Positions 1-14,108 of a stretch of DNA of 64,000 bases are shown piece after piece. Each line of letters begins with the position of its first letter. Position 1 is the first letter of the stretch. Position numbers and translations under genes: made by a program. Origin of the DNA: Alphaproteobacteria bacterium (GTDB taxonomy: Bacteria; Pseudomonadota; Alphaproteobacteria; UBA9219). The notes below the pieces were generated by a model. That model was not told where the DNA came from. It was given only the letters and a program-made list of their open reading frames with translations, and searched no databases. The stretch is taken from NCBI GenBank assembly GCA_028691835.1, contig JAQUYN010000001.1:21122-85121 (forward strand). The letters run 5' to 3'.

Positions 1-491
1 CCTGCGCTGTTTTTAGGAGCAATGCGCGTTTTGCATTGCTGTATTGGCATCGCCGTTCCTTCAAGCCCAGCGAGAACGCACTTTATGTCAGCATGGACGC
101 CTAGACTTTCCATTCTGTTGAACGCGAGATCATTGTCCCCAGCGAAAGATTTGATCATTGTCTCTTGCGACTTAAACACGCCCAGCAGTTCTCCTCCTTT
201 TCTCTTGATCGTATGGAGAACCGTATCGAAGAAAACCTCGCAACTATCGAAGCCATCAATAACCTTGACGTCCATTCTCTCGCGCCGGATGCCTTCTCCT
301 TCCAAAAAGGAAATGCCAGCTCCTTCAAATGCCTGACGGATTCGCGCGGTCGTGTTCTCGCGCGGCGATAGGTTACCGATTTCGAGATTGCGGATCGTGC
401 CAGACGAAATCCCTGATGCTTGCGCTAGTTCCTCTCGCGACCAATCGAGCATACCTCTCGCGGCTCTCATCTGTGCGGCACTTATGAACAT
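1..491 (-). CDS. XRE-family helix-turn-helix protein, partial (C-terminus lies beyond left edge); paralog of 1326..1994
   Basis: Own minus-strand translation from ATG at 491..489 gives MFISAAQMRAARGMLDWSREELAQASGISSGTIRNLEIGNLSPRENTTARIRQAFEGAGISFLEGEGIRR... This aligns with the N-terminus of the 1326..1994 product. It is absent from the ORF track because no stop lies inside the window. Confidence 0.7.
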   Translation of the reverse strand, partial: MFISAAQMRAARGMLDWSREELAQASGISSGTIRNLEIGNLSPRENTTARIRQAFEGAGISFLEGEGIRRERMDVKVIDGFDSCEVFFDTVLHTIKRKGGELLGVFKSQETMIKSFAGDNDLAFNRMESLGVHADIKCVLAGLEGTAMPIQQCKTRIAPKNSA

Positions 492-518
492 GGCAAAAAT
501 CTCTTTCGTTCGTAAAAA

Positions 519-851
519 TCAGTTCAAAACTTTGTCGATTTCTAAATCGACAAGAAACTCTATCATTTGTTGGTAATACCGGGACGGAAGCGTTTTCACG
601 TCCTCTCCGCCAAATTTAGCGGTCAGAATTGAAGCAACTGTGTTTTCGCAAACGCCCTGCGTATAGCCGACATAGGCGATCATGCTGTAAACGGCCTGCA
701 ACTCGATTTCATTAAGGGGCTTCTCGCCCATTTTCTTGAGAGCCATATAGCCAGAGGTAAGAAGGCTCAGGTCACCGGAGGAAATCTCCCGACCTTCTGT
801 GGCATCGTTGAAAATCTCTTCGGGGGTCTTGGCGGTTTGCTGTTTGCTCAT
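519..851 (-). CDS. hypothetical prophage protein (110 aa)
   Basis: ORF-track ORF with an AAGGAA Shine-Dalgarno about 8 nt upstream of ATG 851. No motif I can name. Confidence 0.55.
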   Translation of the reverse strand: MSKQQTAKTPEEIFNDATEGREISSGDLSLLTSGYMALKKMGEKPLNEIELQAVYSMIAYVGYTQGVCENTVASILTAKFGGEDVKTLPSRYYQQMIEFLVDLEIDKVLN

Positions 852-866
852 AATGGAGTTTCCTTA

Positions 867-1034
867 TTAAGCCGCGCTGCGAGTTGGTTCAGTGGCGCGG
901 AGGAAACGCTCCCAACGTTCTTCAAGTGTCATGGAGCAAGCATGCTGTACGCGGTTATCTCGTTCCCATATATGAAGGATGTCCCAAATGAAGTTTTCGC
1001 CGTGATTTTTGTAAAAAGTTTCAAAATCCAACAT
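867..1034 (-). CDS. small hypothetical protein (55 aa), apparently coupled to 519..851
   Basis: Own translation gives MLDFETFYKNHGENFIWDILHIWERDNRVQHACSMTLEERWERFLRATEPTRSAA. Its TAA stop lies 15 nt before the next start. It falls below the 60-aa ORF-track cutoff. Confidence 0.35.
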   Translation of the reverse strand: MLDFETFYKNHGENFIWDILHIWERDNRVQHACSMTLEERWERFLRATEPTRSAA

Positions 1035-1325
1035 TTTTGTCCCTCTTTGGTTAGAATGCGTTATCAGACCGCCTTATTTTGATAACGTAACGCAATTTTA
1101 GATCGAAAGCAATATAATAATGGTATTCCGTCGCAACGCAATTAGTTATGGTAACTAACGCATAAAACCCATCATGAAGTGCGTTGAAACTACGAATTAT
1201 GATAAGTTTGGGGGTACTGTTACCAAAAAATGGTAGATTCCTATTATTTTTAGGTAAAATGTTTTTAATTCCCTCTTAGGATTTTGCGTGTTATAAAGAT
1301 ATAAATTAGTTATGAAGGGCATGTT

Positions 1326-1994
1326 ATGATCACGGGAAAGCAAATTCGCGCTGCTAGGGTGCTACTTGATTGGGATGCTGAGGATCTGGCGGCAAAGGCT
1401 GGGGTCAATCGGGAGACTGTGTTTAACATTGAGAGAAACTCCGTTCAGGCGCGTCCGGGGACACTCGAAAAGATTGAGCGGGCCTTCAACGAAAATCGTG
1501 TTGAGTTCCTAGACGACCAAGGCGTGAGATATAAGCCTGAAGATGTTGTCGTCTTAAACGGCAAGCCCGGACTGAAGCGGTTTTTTGATCTTATATACAC
1601 GCACGTTCAAATTTCGGGCGGCATTATCCGCCAAAATGGGATTGAAGAAAATCTGTTTGATCGATACGGGGGCGATGTAACGTTGGCCCACAGGAACCGC
1701 ATGGCGGTATTGGTCAACGCACGTAAGGACATTTTTGTGCGCGCGATCCTTTTGGAAGGCGACCAGAATTTCGTATGTACAAATTATTCAGATTACAGAT
1801 GGCATCCCAAGAAGATGCCGGACCCGATCCCCTATTATATTTTTGGAGAGACGGTTGGCATTTTCTCCTTCGTCGGGGAGCATGCGCCGAAAATTGTGAT
1901 GATTTCCTCTCCCGTTATTGCACAGGCCTACATCAAACAATTTGACCAAACGTGGGGACTAGCTTCCGTTCCCAGCACAATTAGCAAGGAATAA
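1326..1994 (+). CDS. XRE-family HTH regulator with a ~150-aa C-terminal domain of unknown function
   Basis: N-terminus ITGKQIRAARVLLDWDAEDLAAKAGVNRETVFNIERN is a typical HTH_3 pattern. It is preceded by a visibly AT-rich 240-bp region and followed 4 nt later by the next gene. Confidence 0.75.
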   Translation: MITGKQIRAARVLLDWDAEDLAAKAGVNRETVFNIERNSVQARPGTLEKIERAFNENRVEFLDDQGVRYKPEDVVVLNGKPGLKRFFDLIYTHVQISGGIIRQNGIEENLFDRYGGDVTLAHRNRMAVLVNARKDIFVRAILLEGDQNFVCTNYSDYRWHPKKMPDPIPYYIFGETVGIFSFVGEHAPKIVMISSPVIAQAYIKQFDQTWGLASVPSTISKE

Positions 1995-1997
1995 TAA

Positions 1998-3008
1998 ATG
2001 CAGAAAGCCCATGTTAGAAATCTTGAATTTTGTTGCGCCTTTAATAACAAGGAGGAGGCTATTTTTCTCGACGACATGATTGATTTGTTTATGGGCATGA
2101 ATGGTGGCCACGTTGGAAAGTATTGTTACGATGGGAGTAACTGGGACGCTGTAATCGAGAATTCAACAAACTATTATGTACCACGTGCGGATAACGAACT
2201 TGTGCTTCAAGCATCGGCTGAGATTCGTGATTTTATCCCCCAGCAAACGCCTTACGTTGATTTTGGCGTTGGCGGCGCGGTCGCGTTCAAGCATCACGTT
2301 CTTCCAATAATCAACCGTCTGAATAGCCCCCTTTATGTGGGTGTAGATTTCTGTGAAAGAGCCTTGGATTCAATTGCCTCAATTCAGAAAGACGAAGATC
2401 AAGGGTTTGCAGTGCAGACCGTTCAAATGGACTTCTTTGCACCAAACTCACGGATTCTTACATCAACGCCCTCTCTTGGCGTCATGAACGGGCTAACCGT
2501 GACAAACAAATACGGCACACTGCGAGACGTGAATGTTGCGAGTGATTTCGCGCGCGATCTTGACCAATTGTGTCGGCTTACAAACTTTGGCTGGCTCCTT
2601 CTGACAATCGATACAAACCAAGACGAGACTTCCTTGCGCGACGCCTATGAAACGCCCATGACAAGTCGCCTCTATCTCAACGTCTTTCACCGCATGGCCA
2701 ACACGCTTCCTGTGAACGATTTTGATCCGTCACTTTTCGTCTATGAACCTGAATGGCATCCAGAGCTACATCTGTTTGCCCATATGGCGAAGGCAACGGA
2801 AGCTCAGAGTTTCTCTCTTGGGTCTCATCATTTTTCTGTAAAGAAAGGTGAGAAGATTCATCTTTTGAATTCTTACAAGTTCAGCAAAGACTTCTTTGAC
2901 TCTTGCAGTAGCAAGGCGGGGCTGCGTGTGCAAAAAATTTGGCATCACGAAACTCCTATGAAGCTTTACATGCTTGCAGGTAAAAACGCCGACAGGATAA
3001 TCCAGTAA
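1998..3008 (+). CDS. SAM-dependent methyltransferase, EgtD / Methyltransf_33-like
   Basis: YYVPRADNELVLQASAEIRDFI..YVDFGVGGA (motif I), LGVMNGLTVTN and a C-terminal FSVKKGEKIHLLNSYKFS..AGLRV segment match, from memory, the EgtD pattern YYPTR(T/A)E..L....EI, LGSG, FLGSTIGN, GE.i.tE.S.KF. Confidence 0.6.
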   Translation: MQKAHVRNLEFCCAFNNKEEAIFLDDMIDLFMGMNGGHVGKYCYDGSNWDAVIENSTNYYVPRADNELVLQASAEIRDFIPQQTPYVDFGVGGAVAFKHHVLPIINRLNSPLYVGVDFCERALDSIASIQKDEDQGFAVQTVQMDFFAPNSRILTSTPSLGVMNGLTVTNKYGTLRDVNVASDFARDLDQLCRLTNFGWLLLTIDTNQDETSLRDAYETPMTSRLYLNVFHRMANTLPVNDFDPSLFVYEPEWHPELHLFAHMAKATEAQSFSLGSHHFSVKKGEKIHLLNSYKFSKDFFDSCSSKAGLRVQKIWHHETPMKLYMLAGKNADRIIQ

Positions 3009-3135
3009 AACTTTCCCTTTCCTATCGGTGGTTCTGCGCGCTTTTCATCGCCACGTTGTCCCCCACCAGCGCAATAGCTGGCGAACGAAGCGGGTAAAAG
3101 GCCGAAGGAATGGGGACTGCGACAACATACTGCGC

Positions 3136-3336
3136 TCAGGCCGCTCTAGCTTCTTGATGGTTTGGACGTTCGTATTGCATGGCCAGATCGAATATGGCTA
3201 CGGCCTTGTTGGCTGCTATAAGTGCGTCCGCGTCGCGCCCCGCTCGAACCAAGGCATATGTCCGTAAAATAAATCTCTTGGATTGCCAAAGCAAAAGGCG
3301 TCCCCACAGGTTCAGGTTTTCGTCATACTTATCCAT
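3136..3336 (-). CDS. small hypothetical protein (66 aa)
   Basis: ORF downstream of the repressor gene, with the palindromic operator 3361..3375 just upstream of its start. No recognisable motif. Confidence 0.35.
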   Translation of the reverse strand: MDKYDENLNLWGRLLLWQSKRFILRTYALVRAGRDADALIAANKAVAIFDLAMQYERPNHQEARAA

Positions 3337-3360
3337 ATCATGCCCCTCAAATCGAAAATG

Positions 3361-3375
3361 TTACCAATTCGGTAA
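3361..3375. promoter_or_regulatory. 15-bp palindromic operator candidate TTACC-N5-GGTAA (copy 1: TTACCAATTCGGTAA)
   Basis: Perfect inverted repeat read directly. The same half-sites and spacing recur at 4060..4074 and 7948..7962, all in prophage intergenic regions. Confidence 0.5.
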
Positions 3376-3427
3376 GAAATGGCAAATTTGGGGGCGTAGA
3401 GTCAAGAAATGAATCGACTGGCGGGGG

Positions 3428-3874
3428 TTATTTTGCGCGGCGCTTATTAAACTTAACAACATGGGCAGCAAGGTTCACCGTCTCTCGATGGTTCATATGG
3501 CCATCAAGCACCTCGCGGTAAACATAGTTTGACCAATCGACAAGCTCTTGGCGGGAAACGTCCACGTCGAGCTTCTCTGCGGTTTCAAATATTGCGCCTA
3601 AAATCGTTCCCATAAGCGCATCATCGGCCTTCTTGCCCCCGAATTTCTTGCTAACCGGAAGATCCACGATTTCATCGGCTGTAGCGTCCAGAGCGCCACA
3701 AATCCTTAGCAGCCATTCGATGGTCAGCTTGCGGACGCTTTTCTCAAGCCTGTTAACTTGGGCAGTGGACGTGCCTAGCTTTAACGCCAAGGCTTCTTGC
3801 GTCATCCCACGCGATTCACGAACAGCTTTGATGTTGTTCGTTACCGTTTCCTGTTTTTGCTTTATCGCCTTCAT
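3428..3874 (-). CDS. cI/XRE-like prophage repressor (148 aa)
   Basis: IKAVRESRGMTQEALALKLGTSTAQVNRLEKSVRKLTIEWLLRICGALD is an HTH_3 motif. The gene is divergent from the replication operon across a 246-bp operator-rich intergenic region. Confidence 0.8.
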   Translation of the reverse strand: MKAIKQKQETVTNNIKAVRESRGMTQEALALKLGTSTAQVNRLEKSVRKLTIEWLLRICGALDATADEIVDLPVSKKFGGKKADDALMGTILGAIFETAEKLDVDVSRQELVDWSNYVYREVLDGHMNHRETVNLAAHVVKFNKRRAK

Positions 3875-4059
3875 AATTCGCCTTTATCGCCTGTTTGTGC
3901 ATCGCACAGTTACCTTATAGCACATTTACCGAAAACTGTTTACCATTTAGGAAATACCGCCTGTTAATAATTTATCTCATTACCATACTGTATTACGCCC
4001 TTTTTAGCAGGAAAATAACGAAAGTAAAAGCAAAAAAGAAGAATCCCGCTTGAATCATT

Positions 4060-4074
4060 TTACCGAAATGGTAA
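4060..4074. promoter_or_regulatory. 15-bp palindromic operator candidate TTACC-N5-GGTAA (copy 2: TTACCGAAATGGTAA)
   Basis: Perfect inverted repeat about 85 nt upstream of the Toprim gene start. A one-mismatch copy (TTACCATTTAGGAAA) lies at 3940..3954, and further TTACC half-sites lie at 3910, 3927 and 3980. Confidence 0.5.
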
Positions 4075-4159
4075 TGTAGCCTCACGCAAGGCGGTTTTTC
4101 CTTATTTCAAAAAAAGCCCCTTGGCGCGCTTACAACTTACATCATCGGGAGAAAAGATC

Positions 4160-4984
4160 ATGGCGGATCAAGGGGATCGTGCGTCTTTTGGCGTGGTTAC
4201 ACCATCGGATAAAGGACAAAAAGCAGAAAACAACGGGCTGGGCAACGAAACGGGGGGCACAAAGGGGCGAACACAAGCCCTGTCCCTTGAAAAGGGGCGC
4301 ATGACCGTCCGCGCTTTTATCCGCAAGGCGCAGATTGCCGCATCCGATCATGTGCAGAGGAAGCAAAAGGTTGACTGGTCACAGCGCATTTTTAACGAGA
4401 GCTGGGCGATCACAGACACGGACGGGGAACGCTATCTCTTTTCACGCGGGATCGAATTTGCGGAACAGCCGCCGCCTGAAGCCTTGCGCTTTCATTCCTC
4501 CGTTCTACACGAACCGACGCACAAACATTATCCTGCGTTGATCGCGGCGGTGACCAATGCCGATGGCTGCCTTGTCGGCATTCACCGCACCTATTTGCAG
4601 CCGGGCGGGAAAAGCAAAGCTGACATCCCCTTCGGCGGAACCAAGCGGATGCTGGGCGACTGCTACGGCTCCTTCGTTCGACTTTCTACAAACGTCGAAA
4701 AGAAACTAGTCATTACCGAAAGTATCGAGACAGCCCTGACCATCATGCAGGCCTGTCCTGAATATCCCGTCTGGGCAGCCATGTCACTTGGTAACATGAA
4801 GGCTCCCGTGCCATCGCACGTTCAGGAAATTATCCTTTGCGCCGATGGCGACAATCGTGACCCGAACGCAGCCGAACGCCTCCTCATGGATGCCGTGCGC
4901 CTTCAGCAGGAGGCCAACCATCGCGTGTTGATCGCGCGACCACCGCAAGGGTTGGACTTCAACGATTTGCTGTTGACGGAGTGA
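4160..4984 (+). CDS. Toprim-domain protein (primase-like, DUF7146/Toprim type)
   Basis: C-terminal LVITESIETALTI...ILCADGDNRDPNAAERL...PPQGLDFNDLLL gives the Toprim E and DxD signatures. Start moved to ATG 4160, which has GGGAGA 8 nt upstream; the ORF track starts at TTG 4121. Confidence 0.7.
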   Translation: MADQGDRASFGVVTPSDKGQKAENNGLGNETGGTKGRTQALSLEKGRMTVRAFIRKAQIAASDHVQRKQKVDWSQRIFNESWAITDTDGERYLFSRGIEFAEQPPPEALRFHSSVLHEPTHKHYPALIAAVTNADGCLVGIHRTYLQPGGKSKADIPFGGTKRMLGDCYGSFVRLSTNVEKKLVITESIETALTIMQACPEYPVWAAMSLGNMKAPVPSHVQEIILCADGDNRDPNAAERLLMDAVRLQQEANHRVLIARPPQGLDFNDLLLTE

Positions 4985-4991
4985 TGGTCAT

Positions 4992-5963
4992 TTGCGCGTC
5001 CTCGACCTTTTCTCCGGCATCGGCGGCTTTTCTCTCGGACTTGAAGCAGCAGGAATGCGAACCGTCGCTTTTTGCGAAATCGAGCCTTATTGCCGTGCCG
5101 TCTTGCGAAGGCACTGGCCGAACGTGCCGATCCACAAGGACGTGCGCGCGCTCGACGGCGGGCAATACAGGGGCACAGTCGAGCTTATTTGCGGGGGATA
5201 CCCATGCCAGCCCTTCAGCATGGCAGGACGCAGGCGTGGCACAGAAGATGAAAGACATCTCTGGCCGCAAATGTATCGCCTTGTTCGAGAGATCAAACCG
5301 CGATGGGTCGTTGCCGAGAATGTTGCTGGCCATATTAGCCTCGGCTTCGATGAGGTTACCACATCGCTGGAAGCTGAAGGCTTCACCGTCTGGCCGTTTG
5401 TACTTCCAGCTTGCGCCGTTGGCGCCCCGCACAGACGGGATCGAGTCTGGATTGTGGCTCACGCCAACCACAACAGCCATTGCACAACGCAGCCAAGCAG
5501 CCATGAGCAAGCGGCAGGCTTGGAGGAATGCGTCGGGGCGCAAGACCGTGCCACCGGGGAACCTTGCCGAGCAATTGACGGTATCCGGCGTGATGCCGTG
5601 TGCGGACATGATGAAGCCCTCTCTGCTGCCGACACCACGCGCAGGCAAGCAATCGGGCAAGAGCGGCGAGGGTTTTTCAAAGACACTGCTGGAAGCCCTG
5701 CTGCCGACGCCATCGACGAGCGATGCGAAGGGATCTTCGGCGAAGAGGTTTCGGGGCAGTCCAGAATCTCACGGAAACTTGCGCGAGGTCTTAAGAGATG
5801 GACCGACGGATGGCCAGTATCCGCACCCCGCCTTTGTCGAGTGGATGATGGGATACCCCATCGGACACAGCGTTTGCGCGCCCTCGGCAATGCCATCGTC
5901 CCGCAAATCCCGTTCCTTATCGGGCAAGCCATCCTGCAATACGAGCGGGAGGCAAGGTCATGA
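4992..5963 (+). CDS. DNA (cytosine-5)-methyltransferase
   Basis: Motif I DLFSGIGGF, motif IV GGYPCQPFS, motif VI ENV, motif VIII HRRDRVWIV, motif X RLRALGNAIVPQ. TTG start. Confidence 0.85.
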   Translation: MRVLDLFSGIGGFSLGLEAAGMRTVAFCEIEPYCRAVLRRHWPNVPIHKDVRALDGGQYRGTVELICGGYPCQPFSMAGRRRGTEDERHLWPQMYRLVREIKPRWVVAENVAGHISLGFDEVTTSLEAEGFTVWPFVLPACAVGAPHRRDRVWIVAHANHNSHCTTQPSSHEQAAGLEECVGAQDRATGEPCRAIDGIRRDAVCGHDEALSAADTTRRQAIGQERRGFFKDTAGSPAADAIDERCEGIFGEEVSGQSRISRKLARGLKRWTDGWPVSAPRLCRVDDGIPHRTQRLRALGNAIVPQIPFLIGQAILQYEREARS

Positions 5964-6181
5964 CGTATGAAACGCTTTTCTCGCGCTGTACGTTTCTTGA
6001 TTGCGACAGAGTCGTCCCGAACAGGGTAGCCCCCATCGAGCATGTTACGCTGGGTGAAGCTATCGACTTACGCCACAGGGACGCATGTGGCCAAGGACGC
6101 ATCAGCGAGGAAAGTTTTCAGAAGATCCGCGACTTTCGCGCCAAGATGGCGGAATACGACAAACAATGGGGTCGGAAATGA
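5960..6181 (+). CDS. hypothetical protein (73 aa)
   Basis: ATGA start/stop overlaps with both neighbours (5960/5963 and 6178/6181) suggest translational coupling within the replication operon. Confidence 0.45.
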   Translation: MTYETLFSRCTFLDCDRVVPNRVAPIEHVTLGEAIDLRHRDACGQGRISEESFQKIRDFRAKMAEYDKQWGRK

Positions 6182-7188
6182 ACAACCCGAACCCTTGGAG
6201 CAAATTTTTCTGGAATGACTGGGAGAATGACCCAGCCCTACGCTTGTGCTCATTGGCAGCACAAGGCCTCTGGATGCGGCTTCTCTGCATCGCGGCAAAA
6301 TCCAGCCCGACTGGCTTCGTAATCGTAGCAGGACGACCTTGTTCCTCGACGGACATCGCTCTTTTGACCGGTGTGGCCGAACAGGAAGTCGAAACGCTTA
6401 TCGGTGAGCTTTCTCGGAACGGCGTTTTTTCCCGCGACACACTGGGCCGCATGTATTGCAGGCGCATGATCCGCGACAACAAGAAACGAAACAAACTGCG
6501 CCAAAACGGCGCGAAAGGAGGACAAGCCAGCTTCTTGAATGGTAAGGGCGTTTTCGCACCGACCGAGCAAAAAGCCGAGCAAGCAACCGAGCAAGCCACC
6601 CAGCCCCAGAAGCCAGAGTCCAGAGTCCATAAGCCAGAAAGAATAACCCCCGAAGGCCCCCCTGTGGTTTTGGCACAATCGAAACCGAAAGCGGTTGTCC
6701 ATGCGCTGGCTTCCGATTGGTCTTTGCCGGAGGAATGGAAGGTCACGTCCCTTGAACGCAATTGGGGATCTGCGGCTATCGACAAACAAGCCGTAAAGTT
6801 CAAGCAGTATTTTGGTTTTGGCAAAGGCAGCGACATCAAGCGCAGCGAAAAAGGCTGGCGTCAGACATGGCTCAATTGGCTTGATCGAGCGTTGAAGATC
6901 GATCCTGATGCGGCAACCTTTGGGAAGGCGGATAGTCCGGCAGTTCCTACGAGCTATCCGCCCTTGCCGGAAGCCGTGCGCCAAAAACTGAAAGGGCATT
7001 TTGCCTTCAACGAAAGTTTCATTCAGCGGTGGCTTGCGCCGTGCGTCTTTGATCTTGACGCTGGCACCATTGCCGCGCCGTCGCGCTTTCAAGCCGACTA
7101 TCTCGAAACACATTACGGGTCGAGCCTGCGCCATGCTTTGGGCGATGGGCTGCAAATCCTCGTTTCCAAGAAAATAGGAGTGCTATGA
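6178..7188 (+). CDS. DUF1376 (YdaU-like) phage replication-associated protein
   Basis: N-terminus MNNPNPWSKFFWNDWENDPALRLCSLAAQGLWMRLLC fits the DUF1376 pattern W..F...DW..D..L..LS....G.Y..LL. Start set at ATG 6178, which overlaps the upstream stop. Confidence 0.65.
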   Translation: MNNPNPWSKFFWNDWENDPALRLCSLAAQGLWMRLLCIAAKSSPTGFVIVAGRPCSSTDIALLTGVAEQEVETLIGELSRNGVFSRDTLGRMYCRRMIRDNKKRNKLRQNGAKGGQASFLNGKGVFAPTEQKAEQATEQATQPQKPESRVHKPERITPEGPPVVLAQSKPKAVVHALASDWSLPEEWKVTSLERNWGSAAIDKQAVKFKQYFGFGKGSDIKRSEKGWRQTWLNWLDRALKIDPDAATFGKADSPAVPTSYPPLPEAVRQKLKGHFAFNESFIQRWLAPCVFDLDAGTIAAPSRFQADYLETHYGSSLRHALGDGLQILVSKKIGVL

Positions 7189-7415
7189 TCCTGTATCCAT
7201 CACTGACGGGCGACGGACGGGCGTATGCGCTCGGCATACAAAACCAATCCTATTTGGATATATTCCGACTGGCTGTTTCCATATCGGCAACAAAAGCCGG
7301 AATTTCTTCAGGAAAATCAGTCATAAATAACGGAATATCAACCATACCGTGCCATACTGATCGAAACTGGCAGGAGATGCTGTGCCGCCGGAATGCGGAG
7401 GCGCAGCATGGCTAA
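7185..7415 (+). CDS. hypothetical protein (76 aa), doubtful
   Basis: ATGA overlap with the upstream stop. No motif. The region contains the hairpin GTATGCGCTCGGCATAC and could instead be regulatory. Confidence 0.3.
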   Translation: MILYPSLTGDGRAYALGIQNQSYLDIFRLAVSISATKAGISSGKSVINNGISTIPCHTDRNWQEMLCRRNAEAQHG

Positions 7416-7893
7416 ACGGCGACGCAAAAAAGTGCCACTTCCTGCCCGCCAAGGAGAACGGGCAACGATGGAAAGACGCCTACAATTGGGTGGCGTGGTA
7501 GCGGAAGTTATTGATCGCGATTTACGTGGGAACCCCTTTATGAAGCGTGATCGAGCGCGGTGTGAATGTGTGCTCGATGATTATCTCTATCGCCTTCTTC
7601 TCACCTTGTCCGAACACGAAGCAGGTATGAAGTTCCGCTGCGCCTATCTGCGCGGCGTTTGCCGTGTCATGGTAGACGATCCCAGCGGGGGTGGCGAGTA
7701 TGATCCAGAAATGGCCATGCTTATCGTGCCTATCAGCGAAGAGATTTTGCGCGAGGCGTACAAGGTTTTGACCAAAGCGCAGAAAGAAATCATGATCCGC
7801 GTTTGCGGGCACGGTGAATGGGCGGGCGGCACCGATAAACTTGAAACGCTTCGTCGCGCATTGGAACGTTTGGTCACGCTTTGGAAGCTCTGA
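7408..7893 (+). CDS. hypothetical phage protein; possible HTH/sigma-region-4-like regulator
   Basis: GGAGG lies 6 nt before ATG 7408. The basic N-terminus is KRRRKK. C-terminal LTKAQKEIMIRVCGHGEW only loosely resembles a LuxR/sigma-r4 HTH. Confidence 0.5.
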   Translation: MAKRRRKKVPLPARQGERATMERRLQLGGVVAEVIDRDLRGNPFMKRDRARCECVLDDYLYRLLLTLSEHEAGMKFRCAYLRGVCRVMVDDPSGGGEYDPEMAMLIVPISEEILREAYKVLTKAQKEIMIRVCGHGEWAGGTDKLETLRRALERLVTLWKL

Positions 7894-7947
7894 GAAATTA
7901 TTTTTCAGATCATTGCATTTTCCCTATTGACGATCCCATGTTTTCTG

Positions 7948-7962
7948 TTACCGTTTCGGTAA
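7948..7962. promoter_or_regulatory. 15-bp palindromic operator candidate TTACC-N5-GGTAA (copy 3: TTACCGTTTCGGTAA)
   Basis: Perfect inverted repeat in the 330-bp gap between the replication operon and the ParB/terminase operon. Confidence 0.5.
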
Positions 7963-8145
7963 GGTCGGGAGACGTGGGAAAGGAAGCCGCAGAAAGATTT
8001 TCTGGGGCTTTTTTGATGGCCTTTTCCTCCCGCCGCGCACTGCCTCTCTAGGCTGCAACCTCTTGACAATCAAGGTACTTCCAGCCCGAAAACCTATGCG
8101 GGCGGGCGTAGCGCGGAACGTTTCTAGCGACAGAATCAAAAAAGG

Positions 8146-8194
8146 GTGGACACTTTCCCAAGAGTGGACAGGTGGACACTGTCCTTTTGTCCAC
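8146..8194. repeat. cluster of four GTGGACA heptamers (3 direct, 1 inverted)
   Basis: GTGGACA at 8146, 8164 and 8172; TGTCCAC at 8188..8194; internal palindrome GGACACTGTCC at 8174..8184. The cluster lies 30 nt upstream of the ParB-like gene start. Confidence 0.6.
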
Positions 8195-8224
8195 TTGCGA
8201 GGACAGCGCGGAGGTTTGCGATTT

Positions 8225-8851
8225 ATGGACACAAAACTTCCACGCATGGCCGAGCGTATTGAGTTTTGGCCTACATCAAAACTTCAGCCTTATGAAAAGA
8301 ACCCACGCCTTCACAGCGACGAACAAATTAGCCAGATCGCCGCGAGTTTCATTCGCTTCGGCATGGTGATGCCAATCCTCGTCGATAGCGAGGCGGGCGT
8401 GATCGCTGGGCATGGGCGGTTGGAAGCGGCAAAACTCGTTGGCCTCAAGAAAGTTCCCGTTGTCGTTCTCGATGGACTAACCGAGGAAGAAAAAAGCGCC
8501 TACGTCATCGCCGACAACAAGCTGGCCGAAAACGCGAGCTGGGATAAGGAACTTCTGGGCGAACACGTCGAAGTCCTGTTAGCCAAGGATTTTGATATGG
8601 GCGTTATCGGCTTTTCTAAAGACGAAATTGAGCGGCTTTTGCACGAAGCCCAAGACGATTTGAGCGACGGGTTTGACGGCAAAGATGCCGACGAACATCA
8701 AGAAGAGTCCGACACGCAATGCGTCGTTGGTTCCTACCGTCTCCCCGTTTCACGCGATGATTATCTGCGTTGGCACGATTCCATTCGCGACGCCGTTGGC
8801 TTTGAAAAAGACGCGATTAAGAAAGAAATCAGGAGGCGGTTGAAATTATGA
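8225..8851 (+). CDS. ParB-like nuclease/Srx-fold domain protein
   Basis: LQPYEKNPRLHSDEQISQIAASFIRFGMVMPILVDSEAGVIAGHGRLEAAKLVGLKKVPVVVL is a ParBc pattern. Start set at ATG 8225, since the ORF-track start at 8063 would read through the repeat cluster. Confidence 0.75.
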   Translation: MDTKLPRMAERIEFWPTSKLQPYEKNPRLHSDEQISQIAASFIRFGMVMPILVDSEAGVIAGHGRLEAAKLVGLKKVPVVVLDGLTEEEKSAYVIADNKLAENASWDKELLGEHVEVLLAKDFDMGVIGFSKDEIERLLHEAQDDLSDGFDGKDADEHQEESDTQCVVGSYRLPVSRDDYLRWHDSIRDAVGFEKDAIKKEIRRRLKL

Positions 8852-10350
8852 TCGAGCTTGTTCCGATTAACGACGTGCGCCCCAGCACATATAACCCCCG
8901 CAAGTCCGATCCCATTCGCCTCAAGATTATCGAATTATCTCTTCGCAAGCTGGGCTGGCTTCTCCCCATTTACGCCGACAAGGATGGAGAGATTCTTTCC
9001 GGCCATCAACGCCATCTTGTTGCGACGCGCATGGGCATGACGGAAGTGCCCGTTTGCTACATTCCGCGCATGACGCTGGAAGAGCGTAAAGCCATCAACG
9101 TCGCGTTCAATCGCGGCACGAACGATATGCAGAACTCGGACGCGCCCGACACGCTGAAACAGGCGCTTGAACAATGTAACGTCTTTGACATTGCCGCCGA
9201 GCTTCCCGATCAAACGGATGTCTGCCCTTGTTTGAATGTTGAAACAGTTCCTCTCGCGCCGCTCTTGAAAGCCAACAAAGGGCGGTGGGTTCCTTACGCC
9301 CGCAACCTCGCGCAAATGCTTCGCAAGCGAGGCATTCAAATGCCAATCATTGCCACCCGCGATCACAAAATCATCAACGGGATTGGGCGGCTGGAACTGG
9401 CAGCGGATCGTGGAGAAACCCACGTCTCGGTAGTCTGGATCACAGACACACAAGCCGAGCTGGCACAAGCTATGTTGAACTTTCTTAGCATGGATTTTGA
9501 TATTCATACCCGTTACGCCGACTTGCTGCGCTATAACTCCTTCCGGCGCGTCCGGCGGGTGCGCTCCGAGCTGGGTTGGGGTTTCATTTTTGCCCATTAC
9601 AAGAAAACCGCCGTCAAGGAATATGACGTTACCGACCCTAAGAACGCAGCACACTGGAAACAACTTTACGGCACCTCGGTGGTAGATTTCGGCGCGGGGC
9701 ATCTGACCGAAACACAAATATTGCGATCCATCGGGGTTCGCGTCTCTCCATTCGAGCCTTTTCGGATCGGCGACACGGATGAAATCGACAAGGCCGAAAG
9801 CCTGCGTGTTGCGCGCGCCTTTCTGGCCGACGTTGCGGCGGGCGTGAAATATGACTCCGTCTTCATTTCATCGGTCTTGAACAGCGTCCCCTTCAAAGAG
9901 GATCGGGAACATATCGCCTGCCTGTGCGCCGCGTTGTGTGGCCCCAAAACGCGGCTTTATGCGGCGGCCTCCTCGCGGGGTCATTCCAACTGGCGCAATG
10001 TCGCCGGAGGCAATCAAATATCCGAGCGTCGCCTGAAAGAATGTATCTTCCGGCTGGAATATGAGGGCGGTATCACGCTGGGGGATTTTCAGGCCAAGCC
10101 AAAGGTTCAGAAGTACCATTCACAGAAAGAGTTTTACGATCTATTCAGCCCGTTCTTTGCGCGGGTGCAAGTCGAAGACAAAGCCAACAACGTCACGGCG
10201 ATTTGCGGTAGCCCGCTGCCCGTTGACGCGAAGAAATTAAAAGCAGCTATCGCTTTTGAGTTTGATTTACCGTATCCTGATGGCAGTCGCATGGGGTTGG
10301 TGGACGAAGCCGTCGCCGCCTATGAAAAGCGGCTAGGTATTACGTTATGA
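8848..10350 (+). CDS. fusion protein: two ParB/Srx-like domains plus a C-terminal class I SAM-methyltransferase-like domain
   Basis: Domain 1 has YNPRK...ILSGHQRHLVATRMGMTEVPV. Domain 2 has MPIIATRDHKIINGIGRLELAADRGETHVSVVW. The C-terminus has VVDFGAGH (motif I) and DSVFISSVLNSVP. I saw no [DNS]PP[YFW] motif. Confidence 0.65.
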   Translation: MIELVPINDVRPSTYNPRKSDPIRLKIIELSLRKLGWLLPIYADKDGEILSGHQRHLVATRMGMTEVPVCYIPRMTLEERKAINVAFNRGTNDMQNSDAPDTLKQALEQCNVFDIAAELPDQTDVCPCLNVETVPLAPLLKANKGRWVPYARNLAQMLRKRGIQMPIIATRDHKIINGIGRLELAADRGETHVSVVWITDTQAELAQAMLNFLSMDFDIHTRYADLLRYNSFRRVRRVRSELGWGFIFAHYKKTAVKEYDVTDPKNAAHWKQLYGTSVVDFGAGHLTETQILRSIGVRVSPFEPFRIGDTDEIDKAESLRVARAFLADVAAGVKYDSVFISSVLNSVPFKEDREHIACLCAALCGPKTRLYAAASSRGHSNWRNVAGGNQISERRLKECIFRLEYEGGITLGDFQAKPKVQKYHSQKEFYDLFSPFFARVQVEDKANNVTAICGSPLPVDAKKLKAAIAFEFDLPYPDGSRMGLVDEAVAAYEKRLGITL

Positions 10351-10766
10351 TCATTTTGTTGGACTTGAATTTTACGCTGGTTTCAAACAGTCACGAAAAA
10401 CTGAAACCCTTTGCTCGTCAGATAGAAAACGAAACCTACTGCTTCGACCTTCTCAGCCGGATCAAACACGCCACGGTCATATTGATTACGGCGCGCCCCG
10501 CCATGCACAGTACGGCGACGCTCAAAAGCATAAAAGCAAAGACGGGTTGGAAGCCAGACGCGGCTTACTTCAACGAATGGTTCTTTTCGCCGCCTGCCTG
10601 CAAAAAGAAGATTCTTGAAACCTACATCTTCCCGAAGTTTGGCGCGAACCCCGACACCTACGTTGCCATTGAAAGCAACCCCTCGACCCGCGCTATGTAT
10701 GAAAAGCTCGGCATCGTTGCCCTGACAAGAGACACGGTTCTCGAAACCTTCCGTCCCAAAGACTAA
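10347..10766 (+). CDS. HAD-superfamily-like small protein (motif I variant DLNFT)
   Basis: MIILLDLNFTLV resembles the DxDxT motif with Asn at the second acidic position. VILITARP is motif II-like. ATGA overlap with the upstream gene. Weak call. Confidence 0.4.
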   Translation: MIILLDLNFTLVSNSHEKLKPFARQIENETYCFDLLSRIKHATVILITARPAMHSTATLKSIKAKTGWKPDAAYFNEWFFSPPACKKKILETYIFPKFGANPDTYVAIESNPSTRAMYEKLGIVALTRDTVLETFRPKD

Positions 10767-10805
10767 TCCCCCCAAACAACTTAAAATGTGAAAGGAGGCT
10801 CTGCC

Positions 10806-11471
10806 ATGCAGATCCCGAAAGAATGGACGTTTGCCAATAAGGATGTTGCCGAAGGCTTTGATCATCATGTCCGCGAGCAATTGCCGTGGTACGATCTTCT
10901 GACCTCCGCCGTTTCATATATCGGGCGGCATTACATCCCGCAGGGCGGTCTTGTCTATGACATCGGCGCATCCACGGGCAACATTGGCCGTGCCTTGCAA
11001 TCGACCCTCGACTCTCGCGGGGCCGAGCTTGTCGCCATTGAAGAAAGTGCCGAAATGGCCGCGCTCTATGATGGCCCCGGATCGCTGGCTATCACGAACG
11101 CCTTGTCGTTCCCGTATCAGCCTTTTGATCTAGCCATTTGCTTTTTGGTCCTCATGTTCTTCCCGCCAAGCCAACGCGAACGGTTCCTTGACAGGCTGAA
11201 GGAAAACCTCCGCCCCGGTGGCGCGATCCTCGTGGTCGATAAATGTGAGGCTGTGCAGGGCTACCCCGCAACCATCCTCTCTCGCATTGCTCTGGCTCAT
11301 AAGATCGCGGCGGGCGTAAAGCCGGAGGAGATTATCGCTAAGGAATTGAGCCTGAGCGGCGTTCAAAGACCCATCGATCCAACCATCTTGGGCGACGAGG
11401 CCATTCCGTTTTTCCGCTTTGGCGAGTTCGCCGGATGGATCATCGACTACAACAGCCTTCATAGAACCTGA
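10806..11471 (+). CDS. CmoA-like class I SAM-dependent methyltransferase (carboxy-SAM synthase-like)
   Basis: EWTFANKDVAEGFDHHVREQLPWYDLL...GGLVYDIGASTGN...LVAIEESAEM...LRPGGAILVVDK parallels, from memory, E. coli CmoA [26 protein letters not shown]...VYDLGCSLG...[10 protein letters not shown]...[20 protein letters not shown] lies 7 nt before ATG 10806. Confidence 0.6.
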   Translation: MQIPKEWTFANKDVAEGFDHHVREQLPWYDLLTSAVSYIGRHYIPQGGLVYDIGASTGNIGRALQSTLDSRGAELVAIEESAEMAALYDGPGSLAITNALSFPYQPFDLAICFLVLMFFPPSQRERFLDRLKENLRPGGAILVVDKCEAVQGYPATILSRIALAHKIAAGVKPEEIIAKELSLSGVQRPIDPTILGDEAIPFFRFGEFAGWIIDYNSLHRT

Positions 11472-11479
11472 AATGAACG

Positions 11480-12010
11480 ATGGGACTTTCAATCCGAGCC
11501 TATGCCGCGCATCGGGGATGCTCGAAAAGTGCCGTGATGAAAGCCGTCTCGCGGGGGCGTATCTCCCGCGACCCCGACGGCAAGATTGATCCCATTCAAG
11601 CCGACCGCGAATGGGAACAAAACAGTGATCCGGGGCAAGTGGAAGCGCAAGGCGCGGAAAAACCCGCCCTACAGACGAAACTTAAAGCGAAAGCGGAAAG
11701 CTCTTCAGAAACCCCATCCAACGAAGGCCCGACCTATATCCAAAGCCGCGCAATCCGCGAGCTGTACGTCGCGCGGCTGCGTAAGATGGAATATGAGGAA
11801 AAAGCGAACCGCCTCGTTCCCCTCGATAAGGTAACGGTACGTTGGTTCAACCTCGCACGGCAATTACGCGACCAGCTTTTGTCTCTTCCTAACCGCATCG
11901 ACGCCATCCTTGCCGCCGAAAGTGACCGTTTCAAGGTCAATCAGCTTTTGACCGAGGAGATCACGCGCGTGCTCGAAGAGTTCTCTAAATCTGACCCCGC
12001 GAATCTCTGA
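11480..12010 (+). CDS. phage terminase small subunit (Nu1/Terminase_5-like, N-terminal HTH)
   Basis: MGLSIRAYAAHRGCSKSAVMKAVSRGRIS pattern. The gene sits immediately upstream of, and overlaps, the GpA-type large subunit gene. Confidence 0.75.
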   Translation: MGLSIRAYAAHRGCSKSAVMKAVSRGRISRDPDGKIDPIQADREWEQNSDPGQVEAQGAEKPALQTKLKAKAESSSETPSNEGPTYIQSRAIRELYVARLRKMEYEEKANRLVPLDKVTVRWFNLARQLRDQLLSLPNRIDAILAAESDRFKVNQLLTEEITRVLEEFSKSDPANL

Positions 12011-13926
12011 TGAATAGCGCGCAGGAAGTTGCCTACATCCTTTCCTATCTGGAAGGGCTGAAACCCGATCCCGTGCAAACGGTATCGACATGGGCGGATG
12101 AGAACCGCTTTCTCTCCGGCAAGGCGGCCTCCGAGCCGGGGCCGTGGCGCACAAGCCGAACGCCTTATATGCGCGAAATTATGGACTGCCTTTCGGCCTG
12201 TTCTCCGGTAGAGCGGGTCGTTTTTATGAAGGGCGCGCAGGTCGGCGGGACAGAATGCGGCAATAACTGGCTGGGTTATATCATCCATCATACGCCGGGG
12301 CCGACGCTTTCTGTTCAACCGACCGTAGAAATGGCCAAGCGCAATTCCAAACAGCGCATTGATCCGCTTTTGGAAGAAAGTCCAGAACTTCGCAAACTTA
12401 TCAAGCCCGCAAGGTCCAAGGATTCCGGCAACACGATTTTGGTCAAAGAGTTTCCGGGCGGCATCTTGGTGATGACGGGCGCGAACAGCGCGGCGGGGCT
12501 TCGCTCCATGCCCGTGCGGTTTCTGTTTTTGGATGAAGTTGATGCGTTCCCCGGCGACGTGGAAGATGAAGGCGATCCCGTAGCTCTGGCCGAGGCGCGC
12601 ACCCGCACTTTTGCGCGGCGCAAGATTTACATTGTCTCGACGCCGACGGTGAAAGGCCTGTCACGGATTGAACGTGAATACGAAGCCAGCGATATGCGCC
12701 GCTTTATGGTGCCGTGTCCTTTGTGTGGGGCGTTTCAGTGGCTCAAATTCTCGCAACTCAAATGGCCTCACAACGAACCCGATAAAGCGGCTTATGAATG
12801 CGAACATTGCGGCCAGCTTTTTGCCGAGCATCACAAAACAGAAATGCTCGCGCATGGTTATTGGGAAGCCCACGCGGAAGGCGATGGGCGCACGGCAGGA
12901 TTTCACATCTCAAGCCTCTATTCGCCGCTCGGCTGGCGAAGTTGGGCAGAGATCGCGCGCGCATGGCTCGACGCGCAAGGTTCGGATGCGTCCATCAAAT
13001 CGTTCAAGAACACCGAGCTTGGCGAGACCTACGTTGAAAGCGGTGAAGCCCCAGAATGGCATCGCCTCTATGACCGCCGTGAAGATTATCGCATTGCTAC
13101 CGTGCCGATGGGGGGCTTGTTCCTCACGGCTGGTGCGGACGTTCAGAAAGACCGCCTTGAACTGGAAATCGTGGCATGGGGCCGCGACCGCGAATGCTGG
13201 TCGGTGGATTACCGTGTCTTGCAGGGAGATCCTGCCAAGGCCGATGTGTGGATCGCGCTGGATGCGGTTCTGGCCGAAAGTTTCACACATGAAAACGGGG
13301 TCAATCTCGCGATCCTGAAGTTGGCCATCGACACGGGCTATGCAACGCAGGAAGTTTACGACTGGGTACGCCGTCAGCAAGGGGATAGGGTACTAGCGAT
13401 CAAGGGCGTTGACCGCCTTGGTGCGCCCTTGGGCGCGCCCAGCCATATGGATGTGACGGTTGAAGGGAAACGCAAGCGCCGTGGGCTTCTGGTGTGGCCC
13501 GTGGGATCGTCTTTTACCAAGTCCGAGCTTTATGGATGCCTTCGCAAGGACGCGCCGACGGACGAGCAAAAGGCGCAAGGCATTCGCTATCCGGCAGGCT
13601 ATTGCCACTTCCCGAAATACGGCGAGGATTATTTTAAGCAACTGACGGCGGAACGGCTCGTCACCAGCAAAAACAAGCGGGGCTTCCCCTTCCGCGAATG
13701 GCGCAAAGAACGTGACCGCAACGAAGCGTTGGACTGTCGCGTGTACGCGCGCGCCGCCGCCGCAAGCGTCGGTATCGACCGCTTCAATGAAACTGTTTGG
13801 CTCCGTCTTGAAACCGCTCTCGGCATTGTCACTGAAGTCACCAACCCCGCGCCCGAAGTCAACACAGCGCAGTCCAAGTCAACATCCGCCCCGCAACGCC
13901 GAACAATAAGGAGCAGTTATCTATGA
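12010..13926 (+). CDS. phage terminase large subunit, lambda GpA family
   Basis: 638 aa. WADENRFLS...PGPWRTSRTPYMREIMD...FMKGAQVGGTE (Walker A-like), LFLDEVDAF (Walker B) and the zinc-like CPLCG..CEHCG are typical of Terminase_GpA. Confidence 0.85.
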   Translation: MNSAQEVAYILSYLEGLKPDPVQTVSTWADENRFLSGKAASEPGPWRTSRTPYMREIMDCLSACSPVERVVFMKGAQVGGTECGNNWLGYIIHHTPGPTLSVQPTVEMAKRNSKQRIDPLLEESPELRKLIKPARSKDSGNTILVKEFPGGILVMTGANSAAGLRSMPVRFLFLDEVDAFPGDVEDEGDPVALAEARTRTFARRKIYIVSTPTVKGLSRIEREYEASDMRRFMVPCPLCGAFQWLKFSQLKWPHNEPDKAAYECEHCGQLFAEHHKTEMLAHGYWEAHAEGDGRTAGFHISSLYSPLGWRSWAEIARAWLDAQGSDASIKSFKNTELGETYVESGEAPEWHRLYDRREDYRIATVPMGGLFLTAGADVQKDRLELEIVAWGRDRECWSVDYRVLQGDPAKADVWIALDAVLAESFTHENGVNLAILKLAIDTGYATQEVYDWVRRQQGDRVLAIKGVDRLGAPLGAPSHMDVTVEGKRKRRGLLVWPVGSSFTKSELYGCLRKDAPTDEQKAQGIRYPAGYCHFPKYGEDYFKQLTAERLVTSKNKRGFPFREWRKERDRNEALDCRVYARAAAASVGIDRFNETVWLRLETALGIVTEVTNPAPEVNTAQSKSTSAPQRRTIRSSYL

Positions 13927-14108
13927 CGCTCCCTGATCTTGATAAATATCGGAAAATGGCAGAGGGTTTTGACTTGTCTGATGAGCAAAAGGACGAACTT
14001 ATCATGACTGTGTGGAATATTATGGGGCAATTTGTTGATCAAGCCTTTGGTGTCCATCCAGTACAATTGTGCCAAAAGAATCGTGAAAGCAAGCATTTGA
14101 CCCAATGA
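13923..14108 (+). CDS. hypothetical protein (61 aa) coupled to terL
   Basis: ATGA overlap with the terL stop; AT-rich. No similarity to lambda gpW that I can see. Confidence 0.4.
   Translation: MTLPDLDKYRKMAEGFDLSDEQKDELIMTVWNIMGQFVDQAFGVHPVQLCQKNRESKHLTQ

Follow-up and report, generated by a model that had tools for sequence, protein, structure and literature searches.

This report concerns a gene for a DNA (cytosine-5) methyltransferase (C5 methyltransferase) in a 64,000-nucleotide stretch of an Alphaproteobacteria bacterium genome (GenBank assembly GCA_028691835.1, contig JAQUYN010000001.1, positions 21,122 to 85,121 of the forward strand). The whole stretch is called the window, and all coordinates refer to it. 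The gene contains two long open reading frames (ORFs) on the same strand, here called α and β. α encodes the catalytic part of the enzyme, and β, read in the +1 frame relative to α, encodes what appears to be its target-recognition part. Together they very probably specify a two-subunit enzyme. The features of the locus are the following.

4978..4986, plus strand: GGAG at 4978-4981, 10 nt ahead of the α TTG; the stop TGA of the upstream Toprim gene (4982-4984) overlaps the β ATG (4984-4986) as TGATG
4981..5970, plus strand: β frame, +1 relative to α, open across the whole gene; 329 amino acids (aa) from GTG 4981, 328 aa from ATG 4984
4992..5963, plus strand: α ORF of 323 aa that begins with TTG; catalytic large domain of a C5 DNA methyltransferase, in which an unconserved linker joins motifs I-VIII to motif X
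5010..5027, plus strand: α motif I, FSGIGG, S-adenosylmethionine-binding loop, residues 7-12
5193..5219, plus strand: α motif IV, GGYPCQPFS, with the catalytic Cys72; GYPCQPFS is residues 69-76
5236..5250, plus strand: candidate internal β starts, GTG 5236 and ATG 5248
5302..5418, plus strand: predicted β N-terminal docking element, a helix and a hairpin, ...RLPHRWKLKASPSGRLYFQLAPL, overlying α motifs VI-VIII
5316..5324, plus strand: α motif VI, ENV, residues 109-111
5430..5444, plus strand: α motif VIII, HRRDR, residues 147-151
5452..5826, plus strand: β target-recognition modules (LWLTP..., LLPTPRAGK..., LLPTPSTSDAKG...), related by homology to the variable region that single-chain enzymes carry in frame
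5472..5858, plus strand: α linker (residues 161-289), without conservation and of variable length, with a predicted local distance difference test score (pLDDT) of about 45, yet free of stops
5827..5871, plus strand: β motif IX, PAFVEWMMGYPIGHS, sharing its bases with the conserved α stretch ahead of motif X, RLCRVDDGIPHRTQ
5883..5906, plus strand: α motif X, LGNAIVPQ, residues 298-305
5960..5963, plus strand: ATGA, the α stop overlapping the ATG of the next gene (a 73-aa ORF, 5960-6181)

In the PHROGs collection, α matches phrog_363 (E 2.4e-83) and β residues 61-255 match phrog_1008 (E 1.7e-24); both families are labelled DNA methyltransferase. The conserved part of the β protein starts near 5179, and at its beginning the bases of α motif IV are read as LFAGDTHASPS. 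Between motifs VIII and X, α is a stretch rich in Arg, Gly, Ala, and Glu; the +1-frame peptide contains GLWLTPTTTAIAQRS, LLPTPRAGK, LLPTPSTSDAKG, and PAFVEWMMGYPIGHS. The β frame extends beyond α on both sides, by 8-11 nt upstream and by 7 nt downstream, and the two frames are tied to different neighbours: the β ATG overlaps the Toprim TGA, the α TGA overlaps the ATG of the 73-aa ORF, and the β stop lies 7 nt further on. A sequence-only reading of this stretch had reported the α ORF with motifs I, IV, VI, VIII, and X, the +1 ORF open over the whole gene together with its peptide, and double coding at about 5826..5870. All of these were recovered as described, the nucleotides that encode both the α stretch ahead of motif X and the motif-IX-like β stretch being 5827-5871. 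Its caution that the region is GC-rich and crossed by long antisense ORFs held only in its second part. Two such ORFs do exist on the minus strand (4959-5660, 233 aa; 5459-6043, 194 aa), but the GC content of the region is 56%, so that composition does not explain an alternative frame of 329 codons.

The two-frame layout is real and goes beyond chance. When the synonymous codons of α were resampled, the +1 frame acquired 5.1 stops on average and the probability of none was 0.003; permutation of the gene's own codons gave a probability of 0.009. The window has 37 open frames that reach 300 codons or more; this one alone has zero +1-frame stops, the mean across the 37 being 3.4 per 100 codons. 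For the family comparison we used 160 related loci, 80 on viral contigs and 80 on contigs of bacterial genomes from many phyla, which were selected as the best full-length tblastn matches. Both ends of α were found in 152 of them, and totals are given for these 152, with the window's own row excluded. The N- and C-terminal parts of α lie in one common frame in 152/152 loci. A β-like peptide was detected by tblastn in 91, without exception in the +1 frame. In 147/152 loci no stop interrupts the +1 frame between motifs VIII and X; for the +2 frame this holds in 7/152, and in the variable region stops occur at about 0.05 versus 5.3 per 100 codons in these two frames.

The distribution of stops along the gene defines where the second frame begins to matter. 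At many columns within α codons 1-54, +1-frame stops are present in 15-60% of the loci: codon 1 has one in 83 of 133, and codons 4, 10, 15, 17, 22, 25, 38, 51, and 54 have them in 22-44 loci. From about α codon 60 they are nearly gone (4 stops in 148 loci over codons 67-175). Protection of the second frame therefore sets in some 90 codons before the variable region is reached. At the level of whole genomes, β-like matches were found in 7 of the 41 that were searched, the source genome included.

The content of α is that of a C5 methyltransferase, with motifs I, IV, VI, and VIII all present, a score of 115 bits against TIGR00675 (cut-off 100.65), and a match to Pfam DNA_methylase PF00145 (E 2.3e-43) that covers only profile positions 1-172 of 324. 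As a one-chain enzyme, however, it falls short: motif X is there, but neither a structured variable region nor motif IX, and both of these are located in the +1 frame instead. Thousands of homologues span 98-99% of the α length. In their alignment motifs I-VIII and the C-terminal sequence W.DGWP.S.P..CRVDDGIP.R..RLRALGNAVVPQIP are conserved, and α residues ~160-270 are unalignable and variable in length.

Two kinds of protein match β residues 150-300. The first kind, P0121 (82% identity), P0122, and P0123, comprises ORFs of about 200-310 aa that have no Pfam domain; in each case gene finders had called the +1 frame of a homologous gene. The second are single-frame PF00145 enzymes, P0141 (492 aa) and P0173 (500 aa), which carry WxTP-repeat modules and motif IX (LNP.FVEW.MG.P.G.T) in frame between motifs VIII and X. 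In pairwise comparisons, α 1-157 aligned with P0141 3-164 (E 8e-28), β 157-296 with P0141 267-427 (E 2e-17), and α 270-305 with P0141 443-476 (E 1e-5). This ordered tiling by the α N-terminal part, β, and the α C-terminal part means that the locus holds the content of a normal enzyme in normal order, with the middle part in the +1 frame. In the alignment with P0141, PAFVEWMMGYPIGHS of β falls on the motif IX that this enzyme has in frame, and the family consensus of β motif IX is LNP.WVEWLMGFP.GWTDL. The single-chain WxTP-repeat enzymes P0141 and P0173 share with our locus the catalytic motifs, the kind of recognition module, motif IX (LNP.WVE.LMG.P.G.T), motif X, and their order. They differ in having everything in one frame and one chain, whereas in the window the middle is shifted by +1 and predicted to form a separate protein with an additional N-terminal docking element. 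The two-frame layout is conserved in about 150 loci, and β is homologous to the variable region plus motif IX of the single-chain enzymes. Scans of the Pfam and NCBIfam libraries found no β family, and a β profile run against solved structures gave nothing meaningful, the best match being apolipoprotein E (E 0.65).

Two further proteins combine β-like sequence with other parts. P0146 (460 aa) has motifs I-IV joined in frame to a β-like protein, without motifs VI and VIII, and P0145 (400 aa) has an HNH_3 domain joined to β-like recognition modules and motif IX, without a catalytic domain. Both may be genes with a frameshift, or the β module may truly have other uses in them.

Selection on the two frames was followed by substitution counts against close relatives (L161-L164), which were fetched by identity. 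Between the window and L161, α codons 1-56 differ at α codon positions 1/2/3 by 1/0/9 changes, with 1 amino acid change in α and 9 in β; this is ordinary α wobble. In the variable region the same pair shows 22/3/2 changes, with 24 amino acid changes in α and only 3 in β, and the comparison with L162 gives 45/20/9 changes, with 57 in α and 20 in β. Because α position 1 is the β wobble position there, this pattern amounts to purifying selection on β. Substitutions thus sit on α wobble positions at the ends of the gene and on β wobble positions in the middle. In the doubly coded part (α 57-157) the synonymous rate of α is about half that of codons 1-56, and across the family the third-position entropy at fourfold sites falls from 1.86 bits (codons 1-56) to 1.47 bits (codons 67-157; Mann-Whitney p = 3e-7). 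The constraint on α synonymous sites extends across 5302..5418, where the β docking element is encoded. At some α codons there is hardly any variation, among them A140 (GCT in 133/147 loci) and L126 (CTG in 59/70), and these spell the WK and FQL.P motifs of β. The first ~60 β residues show no amino acid conservation. On the evidence of these substitution patterns, both frames are under purifying selection and the dominant constraint changes frame along the gene. The similarity of the +1 peptide to methylases, its openness in homologues, and a suppressed synonymous rate had all been put forward by the sequence-only reading as ways to check the second frame, and each of them bore the frame out.

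A separate observation concerns L001, L082, and L084. Their α N-terminal 160 residues are 80-90% identical to those of the window, and over the part corresponding to window 5452-5826 their sets of β recognition modules are unrelated to it. This looks like module swapping inside the doubly coded region.

In most loci an ATG preceded at 5-10 nt by an AGGAG, GAGG, or AGGA core, i.e., a Shine-Dalgarno (SD) sequence, is present at α codons ~52-59, directly after the last +1-frame stop and shortly ahead of the conserved QLTLF... of β. The comparative data would place the β start at or upstream of α codon ~60-86, and the non-conserved first ~60 residues of β would be a leader at most. The internal candidates in the window include GTG 5236, with AGGA 7 nt upstream, and ATG 5248, a column that holds an ATG in 73/148 loci. 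The sequence-only reading had suggested an overprinted internal gene beginning at the ATGs of MSKRQ or MMKPS. A separate +1 gene under purifying selection is indeed what we find, but these two ATGs were rejected as its starts, since the conserved β N-terminal element and the first WLTP module are both encoded ahead of them.

At the 5' end of the gene, many relatives (L162, L163, L164, L001, L082, L117, L144, and L169 from the same genome as the window) show the arrangement SD-(G/T)TG-AAT-G, with a weak α start (xTG) and the β ATG 4 nt apart behind one SD sequence; the TGA within xTGAATG closes the β frame immediately ahead of the β ATG. The window and L161 are alike in that the Toprim stop overlaps the ATG (TGATG, 4982-4986) and GGAG stands 10 nt before the α TTG, and the β ATG 4984 may be translationally coupled to this stop. 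The +1 frame is fully open over codons 2-66 in 22/32 loci with an ATG near the α start compared to 21/116 others (Fisher p = 1e-7, a value that is overstated since the loci are related). A counterpart of the β docking element (residues ~65-137) was not detected in the single-chain enzymes. One could imagine that the overlap in this subclade is total, although we regard this as rather doubtful. Starts spaced 4-8 nt from each other would then yield two proteins of ~325 residues from a single 0.98-kb stretch, with ATG 4984 of the window coupled to the upstream stop, TTG 4992 served by GGAG, and one SD sequence serving both starts in the relatives. The docking element would have been born de novo by overprinting of α motifs IV-VIII after compensating frameshifts in a single-chain ancestor. 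If true, it would be possible to date how a new structural element arose within an enzyme core that is among the most conserved.

Structure prediction gave an α model with pLDDT >90 for residues 1-160 and 290-323 and ~45 for residues 161-289. In this model, α is a large domain with a linker at the position of the small domain. The better-folded parts of β modelled alone are the helix and hairpin (WKLKASPSGRLYFQL), the helix that follows the first WLTP, and the helix of motif IX. For the α-β complex the prediction scored 0.86, compared to 0.00 for the best control, with at least 61% contact agreement between runs and a partner pLDDT of at least 53. The predicted interface joins α 134-149 and 266-320 with the β hairpin and motif IX; confident contacts are those of α 134-138 with the β hairpin and of α motif X (294-304) with β motif IX. 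The prediction supports binding of the two chains. In the predicted complex, α strand 134-138 pairs with β hairpin residues that are partly encoded by the same bases (5401-5405; region 5391-5412), so that contacting residues of both subunits would be encoded by common nucleotides.

From these results we consider it very likely that one stretch of DNA encodes, in two frames, a heterodimeric C5 methyltransferase. α (4992-5963) would contribute the catalytic large domain with motifs I-VIII, a disordered linker, and the motif X helix. β, in the +1 frame and ending at 5970, would be the small domain, composed of an N-terminal element that docks onto α, the WxTP-repeat recognition modules, and motif IX. 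On assembly, β motif IX would pack on α motif X and the β hairpin on α strand 134-138, and the two chains together would restore the architecture of a single-chain enzyme. By analogy to the known case described below, both chains would be needed for activity.

Several points weigh against this interpretation. Translation of β in the window is a prediction from sequence. The openness of the α frame in the compared loci is partly favoured by the way they were selected, which does not apply to the +1 frame. The subclade of the window lacks the internal SD-ATG of most loci; its +1-frame ATG adjoins the α start and the frame is open throughout. ATG 4984 lies just 2 nt past GGAG, and the candidate β starts in the window are ATG 4984, which would be coupled to the upstream stop, and the internal GTG 5236 and ATG 5248. 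Modelled alone, β reached only low confidence (pLDDT 60.5, predicted template modelling score, pTM, 0.26). The mark used for the complex score was reached by 58/80 solved complexes and 2/110 mismatched pairs, a calibration that holds only roughly, as we used our own alignments. Moreover, the score may partly reflect memory of solved single-chain C5 methyltransferases, since the two chains resemble the halves of a split enzyme; against this stands that β has no sequence-detectable relative among solved structures. Finally, the likeness to the known two-chain enzyme was drawn from published descriptions.

Three other explanations have to be weighed. A single polypeptide could be produced by two programmed frameshifts, +1 near 5440-5460 after motif VIII and -1 near 5860-5875 after motif IX, which would yield the order I-VIII, variable region, IX, X. 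This would account for the collinearity of the α N-terminal part, β, and the α C-terminal part with the single-chain relatives and for the conserved motifs that each frame carries at both junctions, and frameshifting had also been proposed by the sequence-only reading. We consider it very improbable, because no in-phase X XXY YYZ heptamer occurs at 5380-5480 in the α frame or at 5820-5900 in the β frame; the sole matches of a search for slippery sites and homopolymers were GGGTTTT at 5670 (β frame) and homopolymers of five bases at 5069, 5193, and 5673, none of them at the junctions. Furthermore, α VWIVAH and β GLWLTP share bases, as do β GYPIGHS and α PHRTQRL, so that one chain cannot hold both members of either pair. 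Frameshifting would require neither the stop protection of the +1 frame from α codon ~60, about 90 codons before the putative shift site, nor an α frame that stays open through the variable region. The internal SD-ATG starts in most relatives and the internal gene annotated in phage Lily also speak against it. The second C-terminal isoform that the sequence-only reading had expected from a frameshift gives way to a partner subunit that supplies recognition modules and motif IX.

β could also be a real and selected protein that is not a subunit of α, for example an independent DNA-binding or regulatory protein, with α active alone. We think this unlikely, even though β-like modules do occur fused to other domains, as in P0145 with its HNH_3 domain and no C5 methyltransferase domain, and although binding of α and β is a prediction. 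α lacks a structured small domain and motif IX, and β is homologous to exactly the segment between motifs VIII and X of single-chain enzymes; in 147/152 loci they are inherited together on shared bases, the predicted interface reproduces the packing of motif IX on motif X, and the precedent M.EcoHK31I needs both chains. The remaining possibility, already raised in the earlier reading as a sequence error, is a relic or artefact. Either a single-chain gene would recently have become a pseudogene by frameshift, or sequencing would have introduced two indels, and the second frame would be open by accident. The draft state of the genome (146 contigs, 93.6% completeness) and an α linker that resembles translated non-coding DNA would fit such a case. 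We give it next to no credence and rejected it, given the same layout in 147/152 independent loci on phage contigs and in many bacterial phyla, a diverged second copy in the same genome that has the two-frame layout too, purifying selection on β in the middle and on α at the ends, and a probability of only ~0.003-0.009 for a stop-free +1 frame in this gene alone.

The two-frame layout preferred here has already been proven for the E. coli enzyme M.EcoHK31I, and the gene in the window is a further case, distinct in its co-extensive frames. The work on M.EcoHK31I is reportedly that of Lee, Kam and Shaw in 1995 and of Fung et al. in 2006, and its β chain has 176 aa. M.EcoHK31I from E. coli HK31 (YGGCCR) is an α/β C5 methyltransferase whose α chain carries motifs I-VIII and X (PMC2836561, PMC3404938). 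Its β chain, which carries motif IX, is read wholly from an alternative same-strand frame within the α gene; activity requires both chains, and N-terminal deletions of β weaken its association with α (PMC2836561). The target-recognition domain has been assigned to α and only motif IX to β (PMC2836561, PMC3404938). The window locus is similar in having motifs I-VIII and X in one frame and motif IX in a same-strand alternative frame, and the need for the M.EcoHK31I β N-terminus in association fits the docking element predicted in our β. It differs in that the recognition modules are in β, the variable region of α being unconserved and modelled as disordered, and in that the β frame runs uninterrupted from one end of the gene to the other and has an ATG 8 nt ahead of the α start, whereas the β gene of M.EcoHK31I is nested within α. 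By layout, the gene in the window would be of the M.EcoHK31I kind.

A phage example is found in Paenibacillus larvae phage Lily (NC_028841), in which gp62 is a cytosine methyltransferase and gp63 is annotated as "g62 internal gene". gp63 has 163 aa, starts in the +1 frame 184 nt into gp62, and matches phrog_1008 with E 5.8e-44. Layout and β PHROG are the same as in the window, and gp63 also has the architecture of our β (LTLF..., TSG.K, WK..TP...LLFQL.PS, LPTPTA, motif IX). The Lily β is short, with one recognition module, an internal ATG, and an end before α motif X; in contrast, the window β has three modules and a frame open from the α start to 7 nt beyond the α stop. M.AquI resembles our locus as a natural two-polypeptide C5 methyltransferase split within or near the variable region, and its genes are separate and not overprinted. 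M.AquI (CYCGRG) is a two-subunit enzyme (PMC3404938). A full-text literature search found no published description of widespread two-frame phage C5 methyltransferases, which is not proof of absence.

The locus lies in the early/replication module of a prophage-like element. The upstream neighbour is a DUF7146/Toprim primase-like gene, and downstream a small ORF is followed by a gene for a DnaA_N-containing protein; L161 and L163 have the same synteny. No restriction gene adjoins the locus, which points to an orphan methylase of a mobile element, and its role would most likely be to protect the DNA of the element against host restriction. A step in GC content near window position ~4000, from 46-47% (1-4000) to 53-57% (4001-14000), fits a module boundary of a mobile element. 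The same 2.5-Mb genome contains a second, diverged α/β locus, L169 (contig C110:23556-24359, minus strand), with co-extensive frames, both of them open, a β 58% identical to that of the window, and the start GGGAGG-TTG-AATG. The β recognition modules of L169 are different (WATPNTMDHLP..., WPTPDVRGFTNDG..., WPTPNASDCRDRG...), and its specificity therefore probably differs from that of the window locus.

In prokaryotes and phages, long genes that overlap on one strand are still regarded as rare and doubtful. In this locus, compared with ~150 relatives, purifying selection acts on both frames of nearly 1 kb of DNA, and the division has a clear functional logic, namely a catalytic domain in one frame and a recognition domain in the other. 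Annotation pipelines call one frame only, and not always the right one: for L162-L164 they reported β and missed the Dcm frame. If the recognition modules sit in β, a methylase specificity predicted from α alone is meaningless. Since close relatives appear to swap β modules while α is kept, specificity may change quickly. The locus offers a natural test bed for two proteins that co-evolve on shared bases, as well as a natural split C5 methyltransferase scaffold.

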